Source: an uncultured delta proteobacterium | Lineage (GTDB): Bacteria; Desulfobacterota; Syntrophorhabdia; Syntrophorhabdales; WCHB1-27 | DNA length: 64,000 bases | Direction: 5' to 3' | NCBI GenBank assembly: GCA_963810935.1 | Contig: CAWEPK010000016.1 | Coordinates: 32,001 to 96,000, forward strand | Shown: piece by piece, positions 1-11,529 of the stretch | Layout of the letters: each line of letters starts with the position of its first letter | Numbering within the stretch: position 1 is the first letter of the stretch | Made by a program: the position numbers and the translations under genes | The notes under the pieces: model-generated | Seen by the model: the letters and a program-made list of their open reading frames with translations, nothing else | Databases searched by the model: none | Told to the model about the DNA's origin: nothing

Positions 1-1220
1 ACCGTGTAGCTCAAGCCGTTGGAGCCTGCGTCCAGGTAGGTTGAGTCGATCTGGTGGATGTCGCCCGTGAGGACGATCTTGCTCCCCTCTCCTACACGGC
101 TCAGCACAGTCTTTATCTCGTGGGGACTCAGGTTTTGCGACTCTTCGACGATGATCCAGGACCTGGCGAGACTCCTTCCCCTTATGTGGCCGATTGACTC
201 GAGGCAAAGGACATCGGCCGTCATCAGGTATTCTATGGTCATCTTCTGGTTGTTCCGGGACAGCGGCGCAAAATTGTCGAAGACGGACTGCACCCACGGC
301 AGCATCTTGTCTTCCTTGCTGCCTGGCAAAAAGCCGATGTCCTGCTTCCCCACGGGCACGACGGGCTTGGTGACGATGATCCTGGTGAAAAGGCCGTCTT
401 CGAGGGTCTTGTGGAGACCGACCGCAAGGGCAAGGAGCGTCTTGCCGGTCCCTGCCTGGCCGACGAGCGAGACCGCCTGGATGGCGTTCTCCGTCAGAAG
501 CTCTACGGCGAATTGCTGCTCTTTATTGCGCGCCTTCACGCCCCAGAACGCGGCCCCCGTGTGATCGACCTTGCGCAGCTTTTTGTTCCTGGCTATGGCG
601 AGGCCGGAGGCGCCGTTTGGCGCAGTCAGGAGGGCGCACTGGTTTTCGAGCATCCCGCTGCCGCTGCTCCCGAGCGAATCGAGGCCCAGCTCGCCTGTCT
701 GGTGCAGGCGGTCGAGGTCGGCAGGCGCTACAGTGAACGACGCCTGGCCGGAGTAAATGGCCGATGCGTCCACCCGGTCCGTCTTGTAATCCTCCGCCTT
801 TATGCCAAGGGCAAGCGCCTTGACCCTTGCGTTTATATCTTTCGAGACGAAAACCGTGTTGCCGTTGCATCGCTGTTTGTAAAGCCAGGCGAGGGCGATG
901 ATCTTATTGTCCGTGTGCTGCGCGCCGTTTTCCAGGACCAGGGGGAAGCACCCTTTTTCCGGCCCCTGCAGGGAGGCGGAGTCGAGCTTGAGCCTGTTCT
1001 CGCCGGGGATGGAGGGCTTGCCTGCCCCTTCAACTGCTTTGCCGAGGAAGCGGATCGCCTGCCTTGCGTTTTGTCCCGTATGGTCAAACCGTTTTTTGAG
1101 GCGGTCGAGCTCCTCCAGCGCTTCAAAGGGTATCACGACTTCGTTTTCTTCAAACCGGAACATGCTTTCAGGATCGTGAATGAGAACATTGGTGTCGAGG
1201 ATGTAAGTCTTCCTGGGCAT
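1..1220 (-). CDS. PIN domain + PhoH-family ATPase (PhoH2 type), 3' end runs off the window
   Basis: Not in the ORF track; read by hand from the ATG at 1220: MPRKTYILDTNVLIHDPESMFRFEENEVVIPFEALEELDRLKK (PIN start), later VGQAGTGKTLLA (Walker A), KDIGFLPG, IIVEESQNL, TRVGEGSKIVLTGDIHQID and SNGLSY, all typical PhoH motifs. Confidence 0.92.
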   Translation of the reverse strand, partial: MPRKTYILDTNVLIHDPESMFRFEENEVVIPFEALEELDRLKKRFDHTGQNARQAIRFLGKAVEGAGKPSIPGENRLKLDSASLQGPEKGCFPLVLENGAQHTDNKIIALAWLYKQRCNGNTVFVSKDINARVKALALGIKAEDYKTDRVDASAIYSGQASFTVAPADLDRLHQTGELGLDSLGSSGSGMLENQCALLTAPNGASGLAIARNKKLRKVDHTGAAFWGVKARNKEQQFAVELLTENAIQAVSLVGQAGTGKTLLALAVGLHKTLEDGLFTRIIVTKPVVPVGKQDIGFLPGSKEDKMLPWVQSVFDNFAPLSRNNQKMTIEYLMTADVLCLESIGHIRGRSLARSWIIVEESQNLSPHEIKTVLSRVGEGSKIVLTGDIHQIDSTYLDAGSNGLSYT

Positions 1221-1308
1221 ATTGTTATCTCCTGAAGAAATGCACACGAGGCTTGCGGACGTCCGGCTGGCGGGAAGTTTACGGTCACGGTTGTACCATA
1301 TCTCTTAG

Positions 1309-1351
1309 AAAATACTATTCGAATGTGAAATCAGAATTATCTTTATGTTAA
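1309..1351 (-). promoter_or_regulatory. Pho-box-like direct repeats plus -10 element upstream of phoH
   Basis: The minus strand reads TTAAC-N6-ATAAT-N6-TTCAC-N10-TATTTT (11-bp period). Confidence 0.55.
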
Positions 1352-1440
1352 TAATAGGGAACCGGTACCTTGACGGCCCATCATTGCCCGGCTATCATTT
1401 GATATATGTCCGCATGCAAACCCCTGGAGATGGGCCGTTC

Positions 1441-2106
1441 ATGAAGAGCACGCTGAAGGACATAGCCGTTTGGATGTTGTTGTGGTTCTGCGGATGGGGC
1501 ATCTATTATCTTTTGCTCGCCCACGACGTAAACTACCTCACCTCGCCCCTCGTCTGTGCGCTTTATTTCTCTGCGGCGTCGCTGACGATCATCGTGTTCT
1601 ATAGAAACGTCTTCTTTTCCACAGCAAGGCTCGTCGGCCCTGCATCATGGTTTATGGCCGCCCTCTCCATCGCGGCGGCGCTGGCCGTTTATATACTGCT
1701 CCCTCTTTTCATCCCGGCCCCGGAGACGCTCATCCTCCGCAACCCGGACATGTTCTTTCTACGCCTGGATACGGCATACCTCTTTTCCAAACCTTTCGAG
1801 ATAGTTTTTCAGCAGGTGCTCATCTTCCTCCTCGCAGCGCACATGACGCGGCGCGGCCTCTCCCTGCCTGCAACATGCCTTATCTCCTGTCTCGTGTTCG
1901 GCGCCTCCCACCTTTACCTCATAGCCCACAACGGGTTGATGATGGGCGGCTACTTCACTATCTCGGCCGCCTGCGCGGGCCTGCTCTTCCCCTACCTGAT
2001 CCTCCGTCTTCAAAAAGGCCTCGTTTACACCTCGTCGATCCATCTTCTCTTCTACGTTTTCACCGGGGCATTGTGCCGCCTTTATCCGGCGGCCTTCATA
2101 GAATAG
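1441..2106 (+). CDS. Multi-pass membrane protein, possibly a divergent CPBP/Abi-family intramembrane protease
   Basis: About 7 hydrophobic segments. FEIVFQQ, LVFGASHL and SSIHLLF loosely match CPBP motifs 1, 2 and 4. The ATG at 1441 is preferred over 1345. Confidence 0.55.
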   Translation: MKSTLKDIAVWMLLWFCGWGIYYLLLAHDVNYLTSPLVCALYFSAASLTIIVFYRNVFFSTARLVGPASWFMAALSIAAALAVYILLPLFIPAPETLILRNPDMFFLRLDTAYLFSKPFEIVFQQVLIFLLAAHMTRRGLSLPATCLISCLVFGASHLYLIAHNGLMMGGYFTISAACAGLLFPYLILRLQKGLVYTSSIHLLFYVFTGALCRLYPAAFIE

Positions 2107-2113
2107 GCAAAAA

Positions 2114-2167
2114 TTAACGCAATTTTCACATGGCCTTCATGACACCTTAACAGGATTATCTTAAACT
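2114..2167 (+). promoter_or_regulatory. Four Pho-box-like repeats plus -10 element upstream of the response regulator
   Basis: TTAAC (2114), TTCAC (2125), TTCAT (2136) and TTAAC (2147) at exact 11-bp spacing, then 10 nt, then TAAACT (2162-2167). Confidence 0.7.
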
Positions 2168-2199: not shown

Positions 2200-2889
2200 T
2201 TGCAGACAGGCAAACATATCGCTGTAGTGGAGGACGACGTTGACATCATGGAGCTTGTCACCCTTCACCTCAAGAAGGAGCGCTTCAACGTAACGGGCTT
2301 CCTCAATGGGACGGGCTTCCTCAGGTCTCTGGAAGGGGCGCTCCCCGTGCTGGTGGTGCTCGACCTGATGCTGCCGGACGTGGACGGCTTCGAGATTTGC
2401 AGGCACCTCAGGACGAAGCCTGCGTACTCTTCTATCCCTATCATAATACTGACTGCCCGCACGTCCGAGACAGACCGCGTCCTCGGCCTTGAGCTTGGCG
2501 CGGACGACTACGTTATCAAGCCCTTCTCGCCCAGGGAGCTGACCGCGCGGGTCAAGGCGGTCCTGAGGCGAACGTCCAGGCGGGAGCCCGAAGCGAAGAC
2601 AATCGAAATCGACAGCCTCGTCAGCATCGACCCGCAGAAATACGAGGTGACGGTCGACGGCGAGAAAGTGGACCTGACCGTCACGGAGTTCCGCATCCTC
2701 CAGCTCCTCGCTTCCAACCGGGGCTGGGTCTTCTCCCGCGACAAGATACTTACCCATCTCTGGGGCACGGACAAGATGGTGCTCGACAGGACGATCGACG
2801 TGCACATCAAGCACCTCAGAGAAAAGATGGGTAAGGCCGCCCCTCTGATTAAGAACCTTCGGGGAATCGGATACAAGCTGGAAGCATAA
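2200..2889 (+). CDS. OmpR/PhoB-family response regulator (PhoB/PhoP-like)
   Basis: REC domain (VVEDD, LDLMLP, ILTAR, GADDYVIKPF) plus winged helix (LTVTEFRIL, DRTIDVHIKHLREK, RGIGYK). TTG start. Neighbours include phoH and pstS. Confidence 0.92.
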   Translation: MQTGKHIAVVEDDVDIMELVTLHLKKERFNVTGFLNGTGFLRSLEGALPVLVVLDLMLPDVDGFEICRHLRTKPAYSSIPIIILTARTSETDRVLGLELGADDYVIKPFSPRELTARVKAVLRRTSRREPEAKTIEIDSLVSIDPQKYEVTVDGEKVDLTVTEFRILQLLASNRGWVFSRDKILTHLWGTDKMVLDRTIDVHIKHLREKMGKAAPLIKNLRGIGYKLEA

Positions 2890-2943
2890 AGGGACCGGGA
2901 TCGTTAAGCCTATGACTTAAACGGCCCGGGGCGTTGCGTCGAT

Positions 2944-3514
2944 TCACGGTTTTTCGGCCCTGGCGCGGACCCTTATACATAAGGCTGCAATCGCCACACA
3001 GAGGGCGATCATTAAGGTGCCGACGATAAGGCGTGCCGCGGTGTTCGAGATGATCGCGCCGAGTGCCGCCCCCAGAAAATAACCCCCCATGCCGAATATT
3101 GCGGCCCATGCAAGACCCGAGACCGCGTTCAACGCAACAAACGTGCAAACCGGCACGCCCGACATGCCGATGGCGAAAGGCGCGGCCATCCGCAGTCCGT
3201 AAAGGAAACGAAAGCCGATAATCGCAGGGACCCTGTACCTACCGACCAGCGCGAGAAAGCGGAGCGATTTCTTTTCGAGGGCGGGCCATACGTGTATAAT
3301 CGACCTGCCCTTGAAGCGGCCGAGGAGATAGAAGAACTGGTCGCCCGCAATTCCCCCCAGCCATGCAACGAGGATGACCAGGGGCAGGCTGAGCCAGCCG
3401 TGCCGGGATGCTATCCCGGCGGATATGAGGATGGTCTCCCCTTCGAGGACCGTGCCCGCGAAGACAGCCGTGTAGCCGAGGCCGGAGACGAGGTCCGGGC
3501 CGGACGTATGTCAC
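2944..3514 (-). CDS. DedA-family membrane protein (start disrupted by an apparent 1-nt indel)
   Basis: The open frame 3510->2944 reads GYTAVFAGTVLEGETILISAG...AGDQFFYLLGR...IIGFRFLYGLRMAAPFAIGMSG...FVALNAVSGLAW. The only nearby start (GTG 3514) is one base out of frame. Confidence 0.85.
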
Positions 3515-4573
3515 CTATATCCTGTCTTGCCTTACGTAGGGGGTGAGAAATGACTCGGTGACCTTGCTGCGCCCTGAAGCGATGAACAGGGCGGCAGCCA
3601 GGACCTGGAGGGCGAGGATGGGCGCCGGGTCCCAGAGCCGCCCGATCCCGGCAGCGATATCGGGCGTCACTCCTGTCTCCACGGGGAAGACCGCCCATAT
3701 CAAGAGGGCATAGGGGACAGTGAAGGCGGCCATAACCTGGTAGGCCGTGACGCGCCCTCCACCCCTGTAATCCGCCCGCAGCGTCTCGGAAACACAGCGC
3801 CATACCTGACTGAGGATGGTTGCAAGGAGAAAGGCAGCCCCGTAAAGGGCATTGAGGAACAGGTAAGCTGCGGCAAGGCCGCAAACGACGAGGAAGACCG
3901 AGGTGATCGCCTGGATGGGCACGACCCGTGTCCCGTCCAGGCCCGCCTCATACGATATCTTCTTTGTCCGGCCGCTGAATATGAAGCTGTGCCTGTCGAA
4001 TAATTTCCTGAGCACGGGGTGGAGTTGCGAGACGGGCTTGCCGTAACAGCAGCCGAAGCTGATGCAGGAGAGCCTCCCCAGGCCCTCAGCCAGCATATAG
4101 GCGGCGCTCGTGGCTGCAAGGACCGGCATGACAGGTATAGGAAGGCCCGCGCCGGTCCCGGCAATGCCGTTCGCGGCCGAAATGAGCCACGGCGCCGTCA
4201 GGAAGCCGGCGAAAAACGCGCCGCCTATTGTGGAGGTGTGCGCTTTCTTCTCAACCACCCGCGCGATTATCCGCGAGGACCCGAAACAGATGAGGCTGCC
4301 CGCTGTAACGAGGCAGCCTGCGACCAGGGCAGGCACCGAGATATCGAGTGCGCCGATCAGCACGTACGCCAGCGAGCCGCTCACCAGCATTGCAAACGCC
4401 TGGAAGGCCCCGTAGTACGTGTAGTTCGTGCTCCTCCACGCGCCCGAGTCGAGCTTGGCGGCAGGCGCGGCGAAGGCGATCTGCCACTCTTCCTCCGGAA
4501 GCCTGCGGGACCCCCAGCCGATCACGAGAAAGCAAAAAGCGCCAAGGGCAAGTATGAACATCTCGTTCTGCAC
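3515..4573 (-). CDS. Lgt-like (prolipoprotein diacylglyceryl transferase family) membrane enzyme, divergent
   Basis: EGLGRLSCISFGCCYGKP, PIQAITS and SETLRAD match Lgt signature regions. Multiple TM helices. AAGGAG RBS before GTG 4573. Confidence 0.75.
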   Translation of the reverse strand: MQNEMFILALGAFCFLVIGWGSRRLPEEEWQIAFAAPAAKLDSGAWRSTNYTYYGAFQAFAMLVSGSLAYVLIGALDISVPALVAGCLVTAGSLICFGSSRIIARVVEKKAHTSTIGGAFFAGFLTAPWLISAANGIAGTGAGLPIPVMPVLAATSAAYMLAEGLGRLSCISFGCCYGKPVSQLHPVLRKLFDRHSFIFSGRTKKISYEAGLDGTRVVPIQAITSVFLVVCGLAAAYLFLNALYGAAFLLATILSQVWRCVSETLRADYRGGGRVTAYQVMAAFTVPYALLIWAVFPVETGVTPDIAAGIGRLWDPAPILALQVLAAALFIASGRSKVTESFLTPYVRQDRI

Positions 4574-4591
4574 GGCATCTCTCCTTCTTCC

Positions 4592-4692
4592 GTCATTCCG
4601 GGCTTGACCCGGAATCCATTTTTTTGCCTTACCAACCTCTGGACCCCGGCTCCCGGATTAAAACGTTCCGGGACAAGTTTTGCCGGGGTGAC
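4592..4692. repeat. REP-like palindromic intergenic element (GTCATTCC...GGGTGAC type)
   Basis: Hairpin GTCATTCCGGGCTTGACCCGGAATCCA, followed by TGGACCCCGGC-[TCCCGGA...TCCGGGA]-GCCGGGGTGAC nested inverted repeats. Confidence 0.65.
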
Positions 4693-4721
4693 GACCATAT
4701 AAATTTCGCGGTTCGCTCTAG

Positions 4722-5741
4722 TTAAACATCAACGGGCCTGCCCGTGTGGAGTGCGTACCCTATCGCGGATCTGACTTTCACGTCCGTTTCCAGAAGGGGC
4801 TTACCGAAGGCTGTGGTAAAGCGGCTTGACCCTGCCGCATGGCGCATGTTGCGGACGAGCTGAGCATCGAAGGCCATCCTTCCGGGCTGGAAGAGAAGCA
4901 CGTCCGTGCTGCTCCCCGGTGCGTAGACGCTCTTTGGGCAGCCCTTTTTCATGTGCATGCCCGGCTCGATCCGCCGCGGGTCGTCGTAGCGGTTCTCGCT
5001 GTATCTCTGCTCGACTTTGCCTATCATCAGCGCCGTCACTTCGACCATCGCTACAAGCCCCACCCGGGTACCGTCGGGCACATCCGTATCTATGACCGTC
5101 ACAACGCGGGTGTTCTTCGAATACGGCGTGACGACGGTTACGACCGCCTCCGGGTTGCACGAGTGGTAAGCGCCGGGCAGCTCGTAGATATCGACGGCCT
5201 TCCCGGAGACGGGCACATGGTTGTAGTGGTACCTGTCCGGCGTCAGGCGGAAGATCGCAAAATCGGCCCCCCGGAACGCCTCCACCCACGCGGGCTTCCC
5301 CAGCAGCTCGTCCGTGTCGAAGAACTTGCCTTTCAGGAAAAGCCCGGACGCCTCGCTCAGGGAGCCGACCAGCACGCGGGAATCGGCCGGCGAGACTACG
5401 GCGTCCTGCCGGTCAGGCATGGGCCGGCACTGCCAGTAGCGTATCTTTCGCTCGAAAAGCCTCTTGGGCGAGGAGAGGGCGCCGATGGGGTCGATGCACT
5501 CCGCCAGGTCGATGCCGCAGTGGTCGAGGAACCTGCCGATCCCTCCGATCCGCCGCGAAAGAAAAAGGTCGTAATTGAGAAAAGCGATCAGGGAAGATGC
5601 TCTTCGGGACGTTAGGAGCCGGAAGAGAGAGGGGGCATCCTCCCTGACCCTTGAATACAGATAGGTAATCACACGGTCTAGATACAGCTTCTCCGTGCGG
5701 AGGATGAACGTGTCACGGTCGATATACTGGTGGCTCGTCAT
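4722..5741 (-). CDS. Phosphatidylserine decarboxylase-family pyruvoyl-dependent decarboxylase
   Basis: VSPADSRV, FRLTPDRYHYNHVPVSG, VEVTALMIG and the self-cleavage-type motif YAPGSSTDVLLF. Confidence 0.88.
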   Translation of the reverse strand: MTSHQYIDRDTFILRTEKLYLDRVITYLYSRVREDAPSLFRLLTSRRASSLIAFLNYDLFLSRRIGGIGRFLDHCGIDLAECIDPIGALSSPKRLFERKIRYWQCRPMPDRQDAVVSPADSRVLVGSLSEASGLFLKGKFFDTDELLGKPAWVEAFRGADFAIFRLTPDRYHYNHVPVSGKAVDIYELPGAYHSCNPEAVVTVVTPYSKNTRVVTVIDTDVPDGTRVGLVAMVEVTALMIGKVEQRYSENRYDDPRRIEPGMHMKKGCPKSVYAPGSSTDVLLFQPGRMAFDAQLVRNMRHAAGSSRFTTAFGKPLLETDVKVRSAIGYALHTGRPVDV

Positions 5742-8153
5742 GTCCCCGTTTCTTTGAAGAAAACCTCAGGCTCGGGCACACGGGAAAGGTCCGCGCTTAT
5801 CGCGAGAAGGACCGTGCAGATAAGCCTCCTCAGGCTCGCTTGCCGGGATCGTCTCCGTCATTACGGCCTCGCGAACGCTTCTGACGTAGTCGAGGGCCTC
5901 ACCGGACACAAGCCCGTAAAGGAGCCTCCCCACCGTGGCGTTATGGGGGGACGAAGGTGAGGTAAGGAGCGACAGGTCTTCTTCCATGATATCGAGCGCC
6001 TCAGCCAGGTGGCGCAAGCGCAGGGGGTTGCGGTAGAACTCCTCCGCCGCGCCGTTGAATGCCTCGCTGCTCACATCGAGGGGCGAGCGGGCCCCTAGCG
6101 TCCCGAGGACCTCCTTCGTGAGTGCGGCTGCCGCCTGCCGGCCGGGCGCGCCTTCGAGCCTCTCTTTCAGGTCTTCCATCGTCTCGCCCATGCCGAAGAG
6201 GTCTATCAAATCGGCCGCCTCGCTTTCCAGGCGGCGCACGAGGGCCCGGCAATATTCCGTATTGTAGACTCTGAGATATCCGGGATACCTGTGACTCGCC
6301 CGCACCTGGTCGCACCGCTCAAGGACGCCTTTCATGAAGCGGTTCTCCGTGTCTTTCCTCACGAAGAACGTCGGGACGCCGATGGCCGCGCCGAAGAAAA
6401 TCTGCCTGCGCTCGCTCTCCACGAAGGGGCTGTCGGGAATGTCCTCCGCTTCGATGGTCCCATTCGTAATCGATTTGAAGGCATAAGCGATCAAAAGGTT
6501 CTGAAGGTCCACGGCCGCGGCCATATCGTTTTTGATGCTCGGGAAGAGGCTGTAATAACGCCCCTCGAAGCCGCAAAAGCCTACCCTGTCGAATTCCCTG
6601 AGCTTGAGCGGCAGGTAAAGGGACATGCGCGTGTCGAATACGCCCAGGTCGGCGAGGTCCTTCTTGAGGTGCTCGCTGTTGCCCGGCGTCCCGTTAAGCG
6701 CCGCGCTTCTCTCCGTGCTAAGGAGGCTGACGAGGTAATCGATAAGGCGGAAGTCAGGCACGAAATCGCCGCTTAAGCCTGCTATCCTGCTGATTGCCCT
6801 GTCGAGCAGGGGCGGGCCGAGGGGCGTCACCGGATGTCCGCAGAACCTGATGTCGGCCTTCGCCTTCCAGCGCCGCCAGAGCATGCGCAGGTGCGTGTAG
6901 TCGAGCTCATGGGGCAGGAAGCCGAGGACGCGCTCGGGATGGAAGTCGGCGAAATCGAAGCGGTACGGCGCTGCGCTGTACGTCTTCACGAAAAGGGGGA
7001 GGAAATGCTCCATGATCTTGACGGCTAAATCGCCCGCCTGCTTCTCTTCGCGCAGCCCGAAGCCTGACGACGGGTCGTTGCGCAGACGCGTGAGGGCGTT
7101 GCTTCCCAGGCTCACGTGAGTGCCGTTGTTGGCGAGGCTGATGTCGGAGGTGCTCGGGAGGACCACCAGGTTGCTCGTGTTGATGCCCGCGTCGTGGAGC
7201 TTGGCAACAGCGTTGAGCCGGCTCCGGCTCAGGACCTCGTGACACAGGCTCATATATTCCTGTTTCGCCTCCCCCCTGTCCCATCCCGAAAGGCAGGGAC
7301 TCATGAAAAGCTCGCGATAGAACGAATCGGATATGCAGGCGGAGAGCCTCTTCTGGCGCACGGGGGGATGGGGAGAAAAATAGATCATGGCCTTCTGGCC
7401 GCTCGATGCAAGCTCCAGCTTCTCATTCGCGTACATTACGAGGAGCTGGGTGAGGAGGAAGCGCTTGGCCGTCTCGCGCGCAAGCTCCCTGCCAGGCCCC
7501 CTGCCGGGAGCACCATGGACGATATAGAAGGAATGGGTCTCGGGAGACGTGTTATCGCTCACGAAATGGTCGAGGAGCTGCACGCCGGTTCGGCGGACGA
7601 TGGGGTGGACGTTGTCGCCGCCCACTGCGTCGGCGAGGGCAAGCTTTACGAGATAGCTGACGGGTACGCGAAGGTATTCGATGCCCTCTTTGACAAATGA
7701 GAATTTCCCGATGTCCGAACGTGGGCCGGCCTGCGGGTCCGCCTTATCGGCCGAAAGGTCGCCTTTTAGAACGTCGAGGGCAAAACGATTCAGGAGCACC
7801 TTGGGGAACCGCACCCAGCTATTCTCCCACACGTTCCGGCCGCCTTCGTTCAGGAACCGGACAAGCTCACCCCCCAGCTTGCGCGGCGCGTCTCCCGAGG
7901 CGGCCCGCCGCATTATGTTGGCGAGGTAGTTCGACTGCTCTATCATGAGCGGCAGGTCAACGTCGTTTTTCCTGCCGGCGACAACGGCCTGCAATTCCGT
8001 CTCGGCCCCTGCCGTCGTATCTTCCGGTGAAAAGAACACAACCCCCGGTCCGTCCTCCCATGCCGGCAGGGACAGGCCGTGTTCCTTCTCGACATGGAGC
8101 CGGGCCGGCCGCCTGATGAGAGTTATTCCGCGCAGTCCCCCTTTTTCCACCAC
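5738..8153 (-). CDS. Large uncharacterised protein with carboxylate-amine ligase (GCS2/glutamine synthetase superfamily)-like motifs; 1-nt insertion near 5833
   Basis: AAGGAGG RBS before GTG 8153. Motifs AGAETELQ, RELFMSP, NNGTHVSLG, HFLPLFVKTYSAAPY and FEGRYYS. Removing one C near 5833 gives ASELRRLICTVLLAI...ETGT*, whose stop overlaps the decarboxylase start as ATGA. Confidence 0.7.
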
Positions 8154-8179
8154 TTTCGCCTCCTTGGCGCGAGATGGAT

Positions 8180-8235
8180 AAGTTAACCACCCCAATGTTA
8201 ACAGGCCGTGTGGCTTCCCGTGAATTTGCGGCGAA
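8180..8235 (-). promoter_or_regulatory. Pho-box-like repeats plus -10 element upstream of the ligase-PSD-Lgt-DedA operon
   Basis: Minus strand TTCGC / TTCAC / CACAC / TTAAC at 11, 12, 11 nt spacing, then 11 nt, then TAACTT. Confidence 0.55.
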
Positions 8236-8260
8236 AAACAGTTTCGGCCGCGCTGCTGCT

Positions 8261-10273
8261 TCAGGACCGTGGCGCAGGCGGGAAACAGGCGCCCTTCGAG
8301 GCGGCTTCATCAACGAGCTCCCTGATTTTCCTGCACAGGGAATCAGCCGAGAACGGTTTCTGAATGAAACCGATGCCGATGCCGTCGGGCAGGACGGCGC
8401 CCTTCTGGACGAGCCCGTAACCGCTTACGAAGAGGCAGGCTATATCGGGCCTGATTCTCCGCATCTCCTCGCAGACCTCGACCCCTCCCTTGCCCGGCAT
8501 TACCATATCGGCTATGACGAGATCGAGCTGATGGAGTTTTGTTCCGAACAGGGCGAGCGCCTGATCCCCGTTTGCGGCCGAATAGACTTTGTGTCCGAGG
8601 GTGCTCAGCATATCGAGGACTACATTGCGCAAATCCCCGTCATCCTCGATAAGCAGCACCGTTTCCTTTCCCATTACCGGAGATGCTTCCGTCACCGCCT
8701 CCTCGGGCCTCGCCCCGCCTGCGGCAGGGAGGAATATCCTGAACACGGCGCCGTGGTCCTTGTCGCTGTCGACCATTATGAACCCCTCATGCTTTTTCAC
8801 TATGCCGTAGACTACGGAAAGGCCCAGGCCCGTTCCCTGTTCTTTGGTGGTAAAGAAAGGGTCGAATATTTTCTCTCTTACGGCTGCGTCCATGCCGGCG
8901 CCCGTATCGGTCACGGTAAGGATGAGATAATCCCCCGGCTTGCCGTCCGGCGCAAAGAGGATCGCTTCGTCGTCAGCGATGCGGGCGAACGACGTCTCTA
9001 TTGTCACCTTCCCGCCGGCCGGCATGGCCTCCCTGGCATTGACTACCAGGTTGAGGAGGACCTGGTTGATCTGGCCTACGTCCAGCTTCGCCGAAGGCAG
9101 GCCGGCCTGTAGAGAGACGCGCATCTCCACGTTCTCGCCGACCATCCTCCTCATCATTTTTTCAAAATCTTCGACTACGTGGTTAAGGTCCGCGGTGACA
9201 AGCTCCAATACCTGCTGCTTGCTGAACGTCAGGAGCTGCCTCACGAATTCCGTCGCCCGCTTTACAGCTTTTTCGATGGATTGGCAGCGGACGCGCATCT
9301 TTTCCCTTTCGGGGTAATTATCCGTTCCGTTGGTGGGGGTGCCGGGCGACGCGAGCTGCAGCTTCAAAAGTTCGGCGTTCCCGAGGATGATGCCCAGCAG
9401 GTTATTGAAATCGTGGGCTATGCCGCCTGCGAGGCGACCGACCGTCTCCAGCTTCTGCGACTGCAATAGCTGCTGCTCCAGGACCTTTATCTGCCTGAGC
9501 TTCTGCACCATGTTCCCCATTGCGGCAAGCAGCCTGGCCGGCTCGTCCCTGCCTGCGGCCGCCACCTCCACGTCCAGGTCGCCCTCGGCGAGCCGGTTGG
9601 CAATCTCGACGCCCTGGCCCAGCGGCACCGTGATGCTTCTTTGCAGGATTATGCCGATTACGATGGCGAGAGCGATGATGAAAGCGCCCGTAAGGACAAA
9701 GAGGTTGCGGGTTACTTCGTACGTTTTCACAGCCTCTCCATAATAGAGGGCCGCCTGTTCCCGCTCGTAGACGACAAGCTCCGTCGCGAACTGCTGAAGC
9801 TCCAGCGCCTCCGGCCGCAGCCTGTTCATGTAGGCGTCGCCTGCCTGTCTCAGCTTTCCCATGGCTGCAAGTCCGAGGGCCTGGTCGCCCAGGTAGATAG
9901 CCTTGCGCACGGCCCCCTTGAGCCGGAGCAGGAACATCTTGCCTTTCCCTGTCGTCTCGAGCCCGTCCAGCCGCTCCAGGGCGTCTTCGTACGTGGCCCT
10001 GGCAGTGAGTATGCGGACCTGCTCGAACGCCATGACCGCTTCGTCTTTTGCCAGGATGGTTGTAAGGACGGCTTCACCCTCGGTGCAGACCGCGTCCTTT
10101 ATGATGTTGGCGTACCATATCCTGGCGCTGGTTGTCCGGACGACCTGGTCCATTTTCCCGCTGATCCCCTTCATGGCTGAAAGGCCGAGAATGACAAGGG
10201 CTATCATGAACAACATCAAAAGACCCATGCCGGCGCTGAGCCGGGTTCCAATCCTCATCCATCGCAAGTCCAT
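8261..10273 (-). CDS. Hybrid sensor histidine kinase (periplasmic four-helix bundle, HAMP, HisKA, HATPase, REC)
   Basis: Two TM helices flank an MCP-like 4HB. HAMP domain, [42 protein letters not shown], and a C-terminal receiver (LIEDD, DMVMP, QKPF). Confidence 0.93.
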
Positions 10274-10321
10274 CTCAATGGCGCCTCCGATCTGTGAAAT
10301 CACCGACGGTCTGGTTGTTAT

Positions 10322-11440
10322 TCAATTCCTTGGCGCAACGGGGGCCTTCTCGCCGGGCGGCCGGTCCATGTGGCCTTCCCGCCCGCTCTTCAGCAGCGGC
10401 AATCCGTCGTACGTGACCGATTCGAGGATGTTTTCCGCTTTCCTCACCGCAACCTGCGGGAGCGGCACATAGTGCAGCCGGCGGGCGTGTTTCTGCCCGT
10501 TGTGAATAGTCCACCAGAGCAGCCGGATCAGCTCTTCCGCCCTTTGCCTGCTCCTGCCGTCATAGTTCTGTTCCCTGAAAAGGGCGATCCACGTAAAGCT
10601 GCTGACGGGGTAGCCATCGGTCGCAGCCGTATTGGTCAAAGAGACGTTGGTGTCATCCGGGATCGAGTCCGTAACCGCGAGACCGATCGATCTGGTCGTA
10701 GGATCGACGAACCTGCCGGAATTGTTGCGCAGCGTCGCTATCGGCATGCCGTTGCCGAGCGCGTAGATCAATTCCAGGTAACCGATGGAGTTCGGGGTTT
10801 GCCGGAGCAGCCCGGCGACACCCGCGTTCGTTTTTGCCCCTTGCCCGACCGGCCACTTAAGCGAGTTGCCGAAACCGACCCGTTGCCTCCATTCCTGGCT
10901 CACCTTCGAAAGATATTCGCTGAAAATGAAAGTCGTCCCGCTGCCGTCCGTGCGATGTATCACGTGTATGGGGGAATCGGGCAGGCCCACGCCGGGGTTG
11001 AGGGCGGCGATCTTCGGATGGTTCCATACGGTGATTTTGCCGAGGAAGATATCGGAAAGGGTTGCGGAATCGAGCCGGAACCTGGGGTTCCCGGAAAGGT
11101 TATAGGCAACCGCTACCCCACCGAGACACGTAGGGATCTGAATGACTGCCGCATGGCCTGCCCCGTATAGGGGCCTTACGAATGCATCGCTCCCCGCGAA
11201 ATCGACACCGCGGTCGAGAAGCTTATCTACTCCGTCGCTCGAACCCACGCCTGCGTATTCGACCCGCACGTTGAACTGCTGCCGGTAAATATCGAAGATC
11301 GAGGAATAGAACGGTAGGGGAAAGGTCGCCCCCGCACCTTTAAGCTGCACCTGAACACCCCATGCTTGCCTGTGCAGTGAGACGGTCCCGCCAAGCACCA
11401 GCACAGCCAAAAAGACGAGATATAGCACCTTGTTTTTCAC
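10322..11440 (-). CDS. pstS: Phosphate ABC transporter substrate-binding protein PstS
   Basis: Signal peptide, GAGATFP, YAGVGSSDG, DFAGSD, RTDGSGTT, YPVSSFTW. GTG 11440 is preferred because ATG 11473 abuts the predicted -10. Confidence 0.93.
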   Translation of the reverse strand: MKNKVLYLVFLAVLVLGGTVSLHRQAWGVQVQLKGAGATFPLPFYSSIFDIYRQQFNVRVEYAGVGSSDGVDKLLDRGVDFAGSDAFVRPLYGAGHAAVIQIPTCLGGVAVAYNLSGNPRFRLDSATLSDIFLGKITVWNHPKIAALNPGVGLPDSPIHVIHRTDGSGTTFIFSEYLSKVSQEWRQRVGFGNSLKWPVGQGAKTNAGVAGLLRQTPNSIGYLELIYALGNGMPIATLRNNSGRFVDPTTRSIGLAVTDSIPDDTNVSLTNTAATDGYPVSSFTWIALFREQNYDGRSRQRAEELIRLLWWTIHNGQKHARRLHYVPLPQVAVRKAENILESVTYDGLPLLKSGREGHMDRPPGEKAPVAPRN

Positions 11441-11474
11441 TTGCCGCTCCCGTGAACGGAAATGTCGTCGCATA

Positions 11475-11529
11475 ATCGTAACCCGTCTTTGTTAATGCCG
11501 CATGACTGCATAGGCTAATAACAGGTTAA
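11475..11529 (-). promoter_or_regulatory. Pho-box-like repeats plus -10 element upstream of pstS
   Basis: Minus strand TTAAC / TTAGC / GTCAT / TTAAC at 11, 12, 11 nt spacing, then 10 nt, then TACGAT. Confidence 0.7.

Follow-up and report, generated by a model that had tools for sequence, protein, structure and literature searches.

A 64,000-nt stretch of DNA from an uncultured delta proteobacterium (GCA_963810935.1, contig CAWEPK010000016.1, positions 32,001 to 96,000 of the forward strand; GTDB lineage Bacteria; Desulfobacterota; Syntrophorhabdia; Syntrophorhabdales; WCHB1-27), hereafter termed the window, carries a conserved core of three genes, which encode a large orphan protein of about 800 residues with a carboxylate-amine ligase fold, a paralog of the pyruvoyl decarboxylases of the PSD family and a divergent membrane protein resembling the diacylglyceryl transferase Lgt. 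This set is defined by the folds and motifs of its products, by its synteny and by its neighbourhood of phosphate genes. An evenly balanced case can be made that the trio constitutes a phosphate-starvation lipid-remodelling operon, whose enzymes would make γ-glutamylcysteine (γ-Glu-Cys), link it as a thioether to diacylglycerol (DAG) and decarboxylate it, giving the formula of the 'N-butyramide cysteine glycerols' (BACys). Somewhat more tentatively, the trio may be the missing BACys pathway itself, in which an inside-out Lgt homolog would swap the phospholipid head group for the thiol of γ-Glu-Cys without involvement of a phospholipase C. The pathway would represent a new variant of phosphate-starvation remodelling, in that it joins a PSD paralog and a probably inverted paralog of Lgt with a ligase of a new family.

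Known routes of membrane remodelling at low phosphate include those of the PlcP/Agt glycolipids, the BtaAB betaine lipids, the OlsBA/OlsF ornithine lipids and the Sqd sulfolipid. The trio would follow the same logic, namely the replacement of phospholipid under phosphate scarcity, and it keeps a similar genomic company of pst and pho genes with frequent phospholipase C and glycosyltransferase neighbours. Unlike these routes, it involves different enzyme families and would form a thioether in a direct swap of the head group, rather than first release DAG by a phospholipase and subsequently glycosylate or alkylate it.

Conservation of the gene set

Read from 5' to 3', the gene string on the minus strand comprises pstS, a hybrid histidine kinase gene, the large gene, the PSD-like gene, the Lgt-like gene and a DedA gene, and past its DedA end follow a convergent phoB-like gene, a gene for a 253-aa membrane protein and a PhoH-PIN gene (Table 1). 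A preliminary description of this DNA had noted four co-oriented genes, from the large gene to DedA, between phoB-like and pstS genes. All four are present on the minus strand, and both flanking genes are confirmed by Pfam or NCBIfam matches, pstS being followed by the hybrid kinase gene and then by the operon.

Relatives of the large protein were searched with HMMER among 1.84 billion representative proteins at E-values up to 0.001, which yielded 675 representative clusters. In a collection of named genomes the window proteins were located by tblastn, and 80 loci were kept for neighbourhood counts. At least 535 of 599 pattern-matched stretches from the named genomes encode a relative of the large protein; the stretches originate from Syntrophales, Geobacterales, Desulfobacterales, Desulfobulbales-type records and metagenome-assembled genomes (MAGs) of Acidobacteriota. 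Names of homologous proteins add Brocadiaceae. Cultured carriers, again by name, include Geobacter metallireducens, Citrifermentans bremense, Desulfococcus and Desulfonema. Among the 72 loci with sufficient DNA, 68 carry a PSD-like gene at most 700 nt downstream of the large gene; an Lgt-like gene is located downstream in 66 of 69. DedA, on the other hand, follows the Lgt-like gene in 2 of the 80 loci and was for this reason rejected as a member of the conserved set, while 13 loci feature a gene for a DUF2062 membrane protein immediately behind the Lgt-like gene. Hence, the four-gene set of the preliminary description is conserved with regard to the large, PSD-like and Lgt-like genes, which form the core, whereas DedA is lineage-specific. 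Among the neighbour clusters of the 80 loci, neither a conserved small open reading frame (ORF) nor a gene for a carrier protein goes along with the trio. In three loci (L026, L030 and L035) the large gene stands alone, beside an alpha/beta hydrolase gene and an EAL-GGDEF gene.

A new sequence family with the fold of carboxylate-amine ligases

The large gene most likely starts with the GTG at 8153, because a Shine-Dalgarno sequence, AAGGAGG, points to this codon and homologs align to the ORF of the window from residue ~52 onward only. Its product matches no Pfam or NCBIfam family at E-values up to 10 and no PDB sequence, even with a 32-sequence profile, while a search of the ESM Atlas returned solely unnamed clusters of its own family. 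All named relatives among the 120 matches listed are annotated 'hypothetical protein', and the PF04262 profile found no match in this genome. The affiliation of the protein becomes apparent from its AlphaFold2 (AF2) model, which reaches a pLDDT of 91.9 and for which Foldseek gave GshF and the E. coli γ-glutamylcysteine synthetase as best matches, with weak E-values from 6.5e-3. Alignment of the model with VIA-align resulted in a Z score of 16.8 for 1v4g_C (rmsd 3.9, 397 residues aligned) and of 16.6 for 3ln7, followed by YbdK (15.3-15.7; 1r8g 15.3, 1tt4 15.7), Dop/PafA (14.2-14.7), the plant glutamate-cysteine ligase (GCL; 12.6) and glutamine synthetases (6-7), while unrelated chains scored at most 3.7. 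Within the family, three motifs with acidic, His and Arg residues, TAGxExE, NNGTHVSLG and GFEGRxYS, are invariant (32 sequences). The GxExE, NGTH and ExR motifs, candidates for the Glu, His and Arg residues that bind metal and ATP in such ligases, follow one another along the sequence in the order expected.

As judged from the model, the large protein is a new sequence family within the carboxylate-amine ligase fold class. Its earlier designation as ligase-like with a GCS2 fold was therefore correct at the level of the fold only (Z 15-17 to γ-glutamylcysteine synthetase, GshF and YbdK). It shares this fold over ~400 residues with the γ-glutamylcysteine ligases (GshA, 1V4G; GshF, 3LN6/3LN7) and with YbdK/GCS2, and it would also share their reaction, the ATP-dependent formation of an amide from a glutamyl γ-carboxylate. 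It departs from these enzymes in its length of ~800 aa, with extensive insertions and a helical portion at the C-terminus, and is devoid of detectable sequence similarity to them. The characterised enzymes of this fold class known to us all activate a glutamyl γ-carboxylate. Going by the fold, the substrates may be glutamate and cysteine, an assignment that carries the same even confidence as the pathway as a whole.

Some assemblies split the large gene by frameshifts or TGA codons (L008/L019 in G001, L010 in G002, and G012:C30); these are few-contig assemblies, in which long-read indel errors are likely.

Paralogs of a decarboxylase and of a diacylglyceryl transferase

The PSD-like protein matches PF02666 with 125.7 bits (E 2.4e-36), and its profile aligns with E. 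coli PSD (7cnw; E 8.6e-17) including the PAD and YHxxH motifs, while G276-S277-S278 is invariant in 23 sequences. It scores below every NCBIfam cut-off for PSD equivalogs, reaching 124.5 bits with NF001941, the cut-off of which is 371. It has in common with E. coli Psd (7CNW/6L06; PF02666) the family, the PAD/YHxxH/GSS motifs of catalysis and self-cleavage and the long-form architecture. In contrast to Psd, it is an additional copy in a genome whose canonical psd is located elsewhere (G000:C17, 155.8 bits), it is paired with a ligase-like and an Lgt-like gene, and its proposed substrate would lack phosphate.

The relationship of the third protein to Lgt is more remote. It matches PF01790 with 25.9 bits, where the gathering cut-off is 24.9, in the C-terminal half only (profile positions 88-239 of 240), and it obtains 27.7 bits with the NCBIfam Lgt equivalog, the cut-off of which is 334. 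Neither did a PDB search with its profile find an Lgt chain by sequence, nor was an hhalign comparison with the genome's own Lgt significant (probability 0.26%). The AF2 model (pLDDT 85.5), on the contrary, has E. coli Lgt as its sole clear structural match: 5azb is the top match in Foldseek (E 1.4e-3, prob 1.00) and aligns in VIA-align with a Z score of 13.4 (rmsd 3.9, 235 of 284 residues), the next chain reaching 7.0. Nine transmembrane (TM) helices are predicted, with one extra TM helix at each end relative to the Lgt core.

The signature loop of the genome's own Lgt, G-R-x-G-N-F-x-N-G-E-x-x-G, is not matched by the Lgt-like protein, whose corresponding loop, C-I-S-F-G-C-C-Y-G, features three invariant Cys where the own Lgt has Asn or Glu (26 sequences). 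The invariant Arg of the signature loop is retained, as are the Y-G-K/R-P motif and the RxxxExxRxD loop. The active site of Lgt is situated on the periplasmic side. In the Lgt-like proteins (26 sequences), the side of the motif-bearing loops bears on average 17.4 Lys and Arg residues versus 1.2 on the other side, and the genome's own Lgt displays the opposite charge pattern; due to this bias and the positive-inside rule, the catalytic loops of the Lgt-like protein are predicted to be cytoplasmic, the reverse of Lgt. In summary, the seven-helix core fold, the signature Arg and the R..E..R.D loop are common to both (E. coli Lgt, 5AZB; PF01790), and the chemistry may be as well, i.e. the transfer of a diacylglyceryl moiety from phospholipid to a thiol. 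The Lgt-like protein differs from Lgt in its extra helices, in the Cys residues at the Asn/Glu positions, in the predicted cytoplasmic orientation of its loops and in its proposed acceptor, a small molecule in place of a protein.

Since both proteins exceed the Pfam gathering thresholds, they might be regarded as redundant housekeeping copies, serving phosphatidylethanolamine synthesis and lipoprotein maturation beside an unrelated ligase. We consider this highly improbable, given that a canonical lgt (G000:C9, 275.7 bits) and the canonical psd lie elsewhere in the genome, that the scores with the NCBIfam equivalogs are far under the cut-offs, that the Lgt-like protein combines altered signature residues with a predicted inverted topology and that the trio is syntenic across phyla. 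The separate canonical genes thus bear out the earlier view that the two proteins are not ordinary housekeeping enzymes.

Linkage to phosphate and lipid genes

The gene order pstS, kinase, large, PSD-like and Lgt-like gene recurs in two other families (G038 and G027), while in G004 and G017 pstS is located upstream on the same strand (~0.8 kb), behind phoB. For a survey of neighbours, all ORFs of the 80 loci were clustered and the cluster representatives were scanned against Pfam. Recurrent neighbours (number of loci in brackets) comprise PstS (9), PstC/A (10), PhoU (10), PhoH-PIN (6), Ppk (8) and Ppx (5) as well as a phospholipase C of the Zn-dependent type (11) and a GT4 glycosyltransferase of 811 aa (22). 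At least one Pst, PhoU, PhoH, Ppk or Ppx gene occurs at 28 of the 80 loci, phospholipase C or GT4 at 28, and either marker group at 47; the examined flanking DNA of the remaining 33 contains none of these markers. Hence, the link to pho and pst genes that the preliminary description had assumed extends to the homologs, in the form of phosphate genes near 28 loci and of a pstS-headed order in relatives.

Further recurrent neighbours are EAL-GGDEF, MCP and DksA-like genes. These, together with the 33 loci lacking phosphate or lipid markers, would be compatible with a function other than bulk remodelling, for instance the synthesis of a membrane-anchored low-molecular-weight thiol or γ-glutamyl compound for redox or metal handling, or the lipidation of peptides or proteins at the cytoplasmic face, in which case the phosphate neighbourhood would reflect general stress regulation. 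Relatives of the large protein with the same fold make thiol peptides (γ-Glu-Cys) or, in the case of PafA and Dop, attach protein tags and cleave them off, and the known acceptor of Lgt is a protein cysteine. Nevertheless, such a function appears distinctly improbable in view of the frequency of both the phosphate genes and the phospholipase C or GT4 genes, the position of pstS at the head of the gene string in several lineages and the lack of a conserved small ORF or carrier-protein gene beside the trio.

The 811-aa protein features a C-terminal GT4 part and an N-terminal part of ~440 aa without clear family (e.g. L072 4540-6975 (-) and L090 6190-8634 (-)) and is a candidate synthase of a co-induced glycolipid. 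A PHP domain in its N-terminal part was dismissed, the E-value of 0.21 being below threshold. An ortholog of this fusion was not found in the present genome, where generic GT4 matches amount to at most 49 bits. One contig of another genome (G004:C3; L012/L013) harbours two copies of the large gene ~10 kb apart; behind the second copy (L024) lies the gene of the GT4 fusion protein in place of PSD-like and Lgt-like genes.

With respect to regulation, direct repeats phased at 11 bp, with a unit of the GT(A/T)ACA type, precede the large gene in 12 of 74 loci, as compared to a mean of 0.92 and a maximum of 4 in 50 shuffles. A Pho-box matrix was built from these upstream repeats of the relatives (Geobacter-type) and all window positions were scanned on both strands; the matrix favours AT-rich intergenic DNA, and the resulting ranks overstate significance somewhat. 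Among the six best-scoring positions are sites upstream of the phoB-like gene, of the PhoH-PIN gene and of pstS (Table 1), which may serve this lineage as Pho boxes. The position directly upstream of the large gene obtained a weak score of -0.4 (top 0.16% of positions). The Pho-box-like promoter that had been noted for the operon is accordingly confirmed in part, in that the scores are high upstream of pstS, the phoB-like gene and PhoH and weak directly before the operon. Since the pstS site is strong and the site of the large gene weak, transcription of the operon probably starts at the pstS promoter or at a weak promoter in front of the operon itself. A simple scan for sigma-70 promoters and terminators revealed no more sites than in shuffles, and no RNA runs carrying the 5.4-kb operon stretch are listed.

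Proposed pathway and its relation to BACys lipids

From these features we infer the substrates, step order, product and low-phosphate induction of the pathway as follows. In the first step, the cytoplasmic ~800-aa ligase would join the γ-carboxyl of glutamate to cysteine at the expense of ATP, as suggested by its fold. In the second step, the Lgt-like enzyme, by means of a cytoplasmic active site, would move the diradylglyceryl moiety of a phospholipid, probably phosphatidylglycerol, onto the Cys thiol; going by Lgt chemistry and the predicted topology, this head-group swap would form a thioether and release glycerol phosphate, from which phosphorus could be recovered. In the third step, the PSD-like pyruvoyl enzyme, as its conserved catalytic motifs suggest, would strip the α-carboxyl beside the free amine and thereby trim the head to 4-aminobutyryl-cysteine. 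The product would be S-diradylglyceryl-N-(4-aminobutyryl)cysteine, a zwitterionic replacement lipid, or an isomer thereof if the step order differs. Speculatively, this lipid might be flipped by DedA in the present lineage and by DUF2062 proteins in others. The synteny, the phosphate neighbours, the ligase fold and the separate housekeeping lgt and psd all speak in favour of the phosphorus-free lipid with an amino-acid head group that had been envisaged earlier for this operon.

A lipid class of matching composition may already be chemically described. According to Ding et al. 2024 (PMC11181052), low phosphate causes Desulfatibacillum alkenivorans to replace phosphatidylethanolamine, phosphatidylglycerol and cardiolipin by glucuronosyl (GlcA) lipids and new sulfur-containing aminolipids, tentatively named BACys, with a head-group ion C7H13O3N2S+ and the formula C45H87O7N2S for BACys-DAG(35:0); the head group is worded there as 'butyramide linked to a cysteine'. 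By arithmetic, γ-Glu-Cys minus CO2 corresponds to C7H14N2O3S, and its protonated thioether to DAG(35:0), i.e. DAG(35:0) + (γ-Glu-Cys minus CO2) - H2O + H+, to C45H87N2O7S, which equals BACys-DAG(35:0). Thus, the formulas of both head group and whole lipid coincide with those of the predicted product, each containing sulfur and two nitrogen atoms, and the BACys formula calls for precisely the activities of a γ-Glu-Cys-type ligase, an Lgt-type thioether former and a pyruvoyl decarboxylase. Moreover, BACys lipids are induced at low phosphate only, occur in the same phylum as the present genome and are co-induced with GlcA lipids, the latter being in keeping with the GT4 neighbour of the trio. The searchable literature yielded no gene assignment for BACys lipids, the sole relevant paper being PMC11181052, which describes their chemistry and in the available text of which no genes are named.

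The formula is compatible with more than one route. The same phosphate-linked head-group pathway might lead to another product, such as S-diacylglyceryl-cysteamine, for which the Lgt-like enzyme would act on free Cys, followed by decarboxylation by the PSD-like enzyme and then extension by the ligase, or to an unseen aminolipid, so that the match to BACys would be coincidental or due to an isomer. This appears rather unlikely, even though all evidence from synteny and phosphate genes fits it equally well and nothing specific speaks against it. It differs from the γ-Glu-Cys route only in step order and product identity. The long-form architecture of the PSD-like protein (NF001941 match over residues 5-301) suggests a lipid-bound substrate resembling phosphatidylserine, which S-diacylglyceryl-cysteine would be, and γ-Glu-cysteamine likewise has the formula C7H14N2O3S by arithmetic. 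The wording of the head group in PMC11181052, on the other hand, better fits a retained Cys carboxyl than a cysteamine product.

Several points weigh against the proposal that the trio makes a BACys-type lipid from γ-Glu-Cys. Regarding its distribution, the large gene is present in 44 of 401 evenly sampled genomes of the phylum (and in 14 of 41 close relatives), and to this add the 33 loci without phosphate or lipid markers and the weak Pho-box score directly before the operon. Regarding the enzymes, hhalign detected no sequence similarity of the large protein to E. coli GshA (probability 0.08%), and Dop, which shares the modelled fold, is an amidase; in the Lgt-like protein two signature residues are replaced by Cys, and the inverted topology is a positive-inside prediction. 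Regarding the lipid, the head-group structure published in PMC11181052 is tentative, derived from tandem mass spectrometry (MS2) only, several isomers share the BACys formula, and the thioether link is assumed. Finally, no Desulfatibacillum is among the 120 listed of 2960 homologs obtained with a Desulfonema limicola query, which shows nothing either way.

Gene junctions and features of the window

The sequence was checked against Logan contigs from four soil-metagenome runs (with Nextera-type adapter remnants), which were placed on positions 2900-8300. Base 5833 is missing in the contigs of three of the four runs (X1, X2 and X4) and is probably an assembly indel. In the window sequence, the large and PSD-like genes are separated by 24 nt; upon removal of base 5833, the large gene ends at 5738 in a TGA that forms an ATGA overlap with the start of the PSD-like gene, and the tail of the large protein fits the family consensus. 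The extra base alters the last ~20 residues of this protein.

Between the PSD-like and Lgt-like genes lies a spacer of 148 nt (4574-4721), which includes a perfect 8-bp-stem hairpin at 4595-4615. The hairpin was rejected as a repeat element: a single copy is present in the window, and likewise in the whole genome. The contigs of three runs break within the spacer at differing loose ends (4584, 4621 and 4625), which suggests strain variation. Elsewhere, the two genes overlap by 4 nt in a MAG of Desulfonema limicola, and a DksA-like gene occupies the gap in 12 loci.

At the junction of the Lgt-like gene with DedA, the stop codon TAG is directly followed by a GTG (3514-3512), which is the sole nearby start and is in frame with the Lgt-like gene, the DedA frame being +1 to it and devoid of ATG, GTG or TTG before codon 108. 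An assembly error as the cause of this offset was rejected, because contigs of three runs (X1, X2 and X3) span the 5' junction of DedA gap-free and show no indel. The offset recurs in a second species of the genus (G001; L019 12500-12560), and dN/dS between the two DedA frames is 0.27 over 187 codons, so that DedA is under purifying selection in the genus. In a relative from another genus (G004), DedA possesses an in-frame GTG. Initiation might involve a non-canonical start or a +1 shift on a run of proline codons (window 3480-3514 (-)). The DedA protein matches PF09335 with 45.2 bits and the NCBIfam DedA/UptA models with 38-39 bits, below their cut-offs. Taken together, the two abutting or overlapping junctions of the preliminary description exist, the one between the large and PSD-like genes after removal of base 5833, whereas the indel repair it called for applies to this junction and not to DedA, where the offset is real. 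In E. coli K-12 (L107 2884-4941), gshA directly adjoins yqaA, a gene of the DedA family, which is a curious parallel to the pairing of ligase and DedA and may be due to chance.

The 253-aa membrane protein beyond the phoB-like gene is kept beside PhoH in G004 (49% identity) and G010 (41% identity).

Table 1. Genes and candidate regulatory sites of the window, with positions counted from its first nucleotide.
Feature	Position	Strand	Basis
Large orphan gene, ~800 aa, carboxylate-amine ligase fold	5738..8153 after removing base 5833	-	structure model
Large ORF as in the window sequence	5766..8195	-	ORF list
Long-form paralog of the PSD-family pyruvoyl decarboxylases, 339 aa, extended at the N-terminus	4722..5741	-	PF02666
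Divergent Lgt-like membrane transferase (putative), 352 aa	3515..4573	-	PF01790 and structure model
DedA/VTT membrane protein	2944..3514 (frame open 3510->2944)	-	PF09335
Hybrid sensor histidine kinase, between pstS and operon	8261..10303	-	Pfam: 4HB_MCP, HAMP, HisKA, HATPase, receiver
pstS, phosphate ABC transporter binding protein, head of the string	10322..11473	-	TIGR00975, 315.9 bits (cut-off 205)
PhoB-like OmpR-family response regulator	2200..2889	+	TIGR02154, 225.4 bits (below cut-off 296.2)
253-aa membrane protein, divergent from PhoH-PIN	1345..2106	+	no Pfam/NCBIfam match
PhoH-PIN protein, truncated by the window edge	3..1247	-	PF02562 and PF13638
Candidate Pho box upstream of phoB-like gene	2114-2135	+	matrix score 13.5, rank 1 in 64 kb
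Candidate Pho boxes upstream of PhoH-PIN, shared with the divergent 253-aa gene	1330-1362	-	matrix ranks 2 and 6
Candidate Pho box upstream of pstS (tandem site)	11485..11506	-	matrix score 11.3, rank 5

Implications

If the proposal holds true, the trio would provide the genes for a lipid class that takes the place of nearly all phospholipid when a sulfate reducer is starved of phosphate (Ding et al. 2024, PMC11181052) and for which no biosynthesis is known. In addition, it would reveal a new function within the Lgt superfamily, characterized by a small-molecule acceptor and a cytoplasm-facing active site, and a large family of ~800-aa 'hypothetical proteins' would find its place in the fold class of the glutamate-cysteine ligases. 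The cultured carriers render the idea directly testable. The genes of the trio would, moreover, serve as markers of phosphorus stress and of 'sulfur-for-phosphorus' membranes in anoxic soils and sediments.

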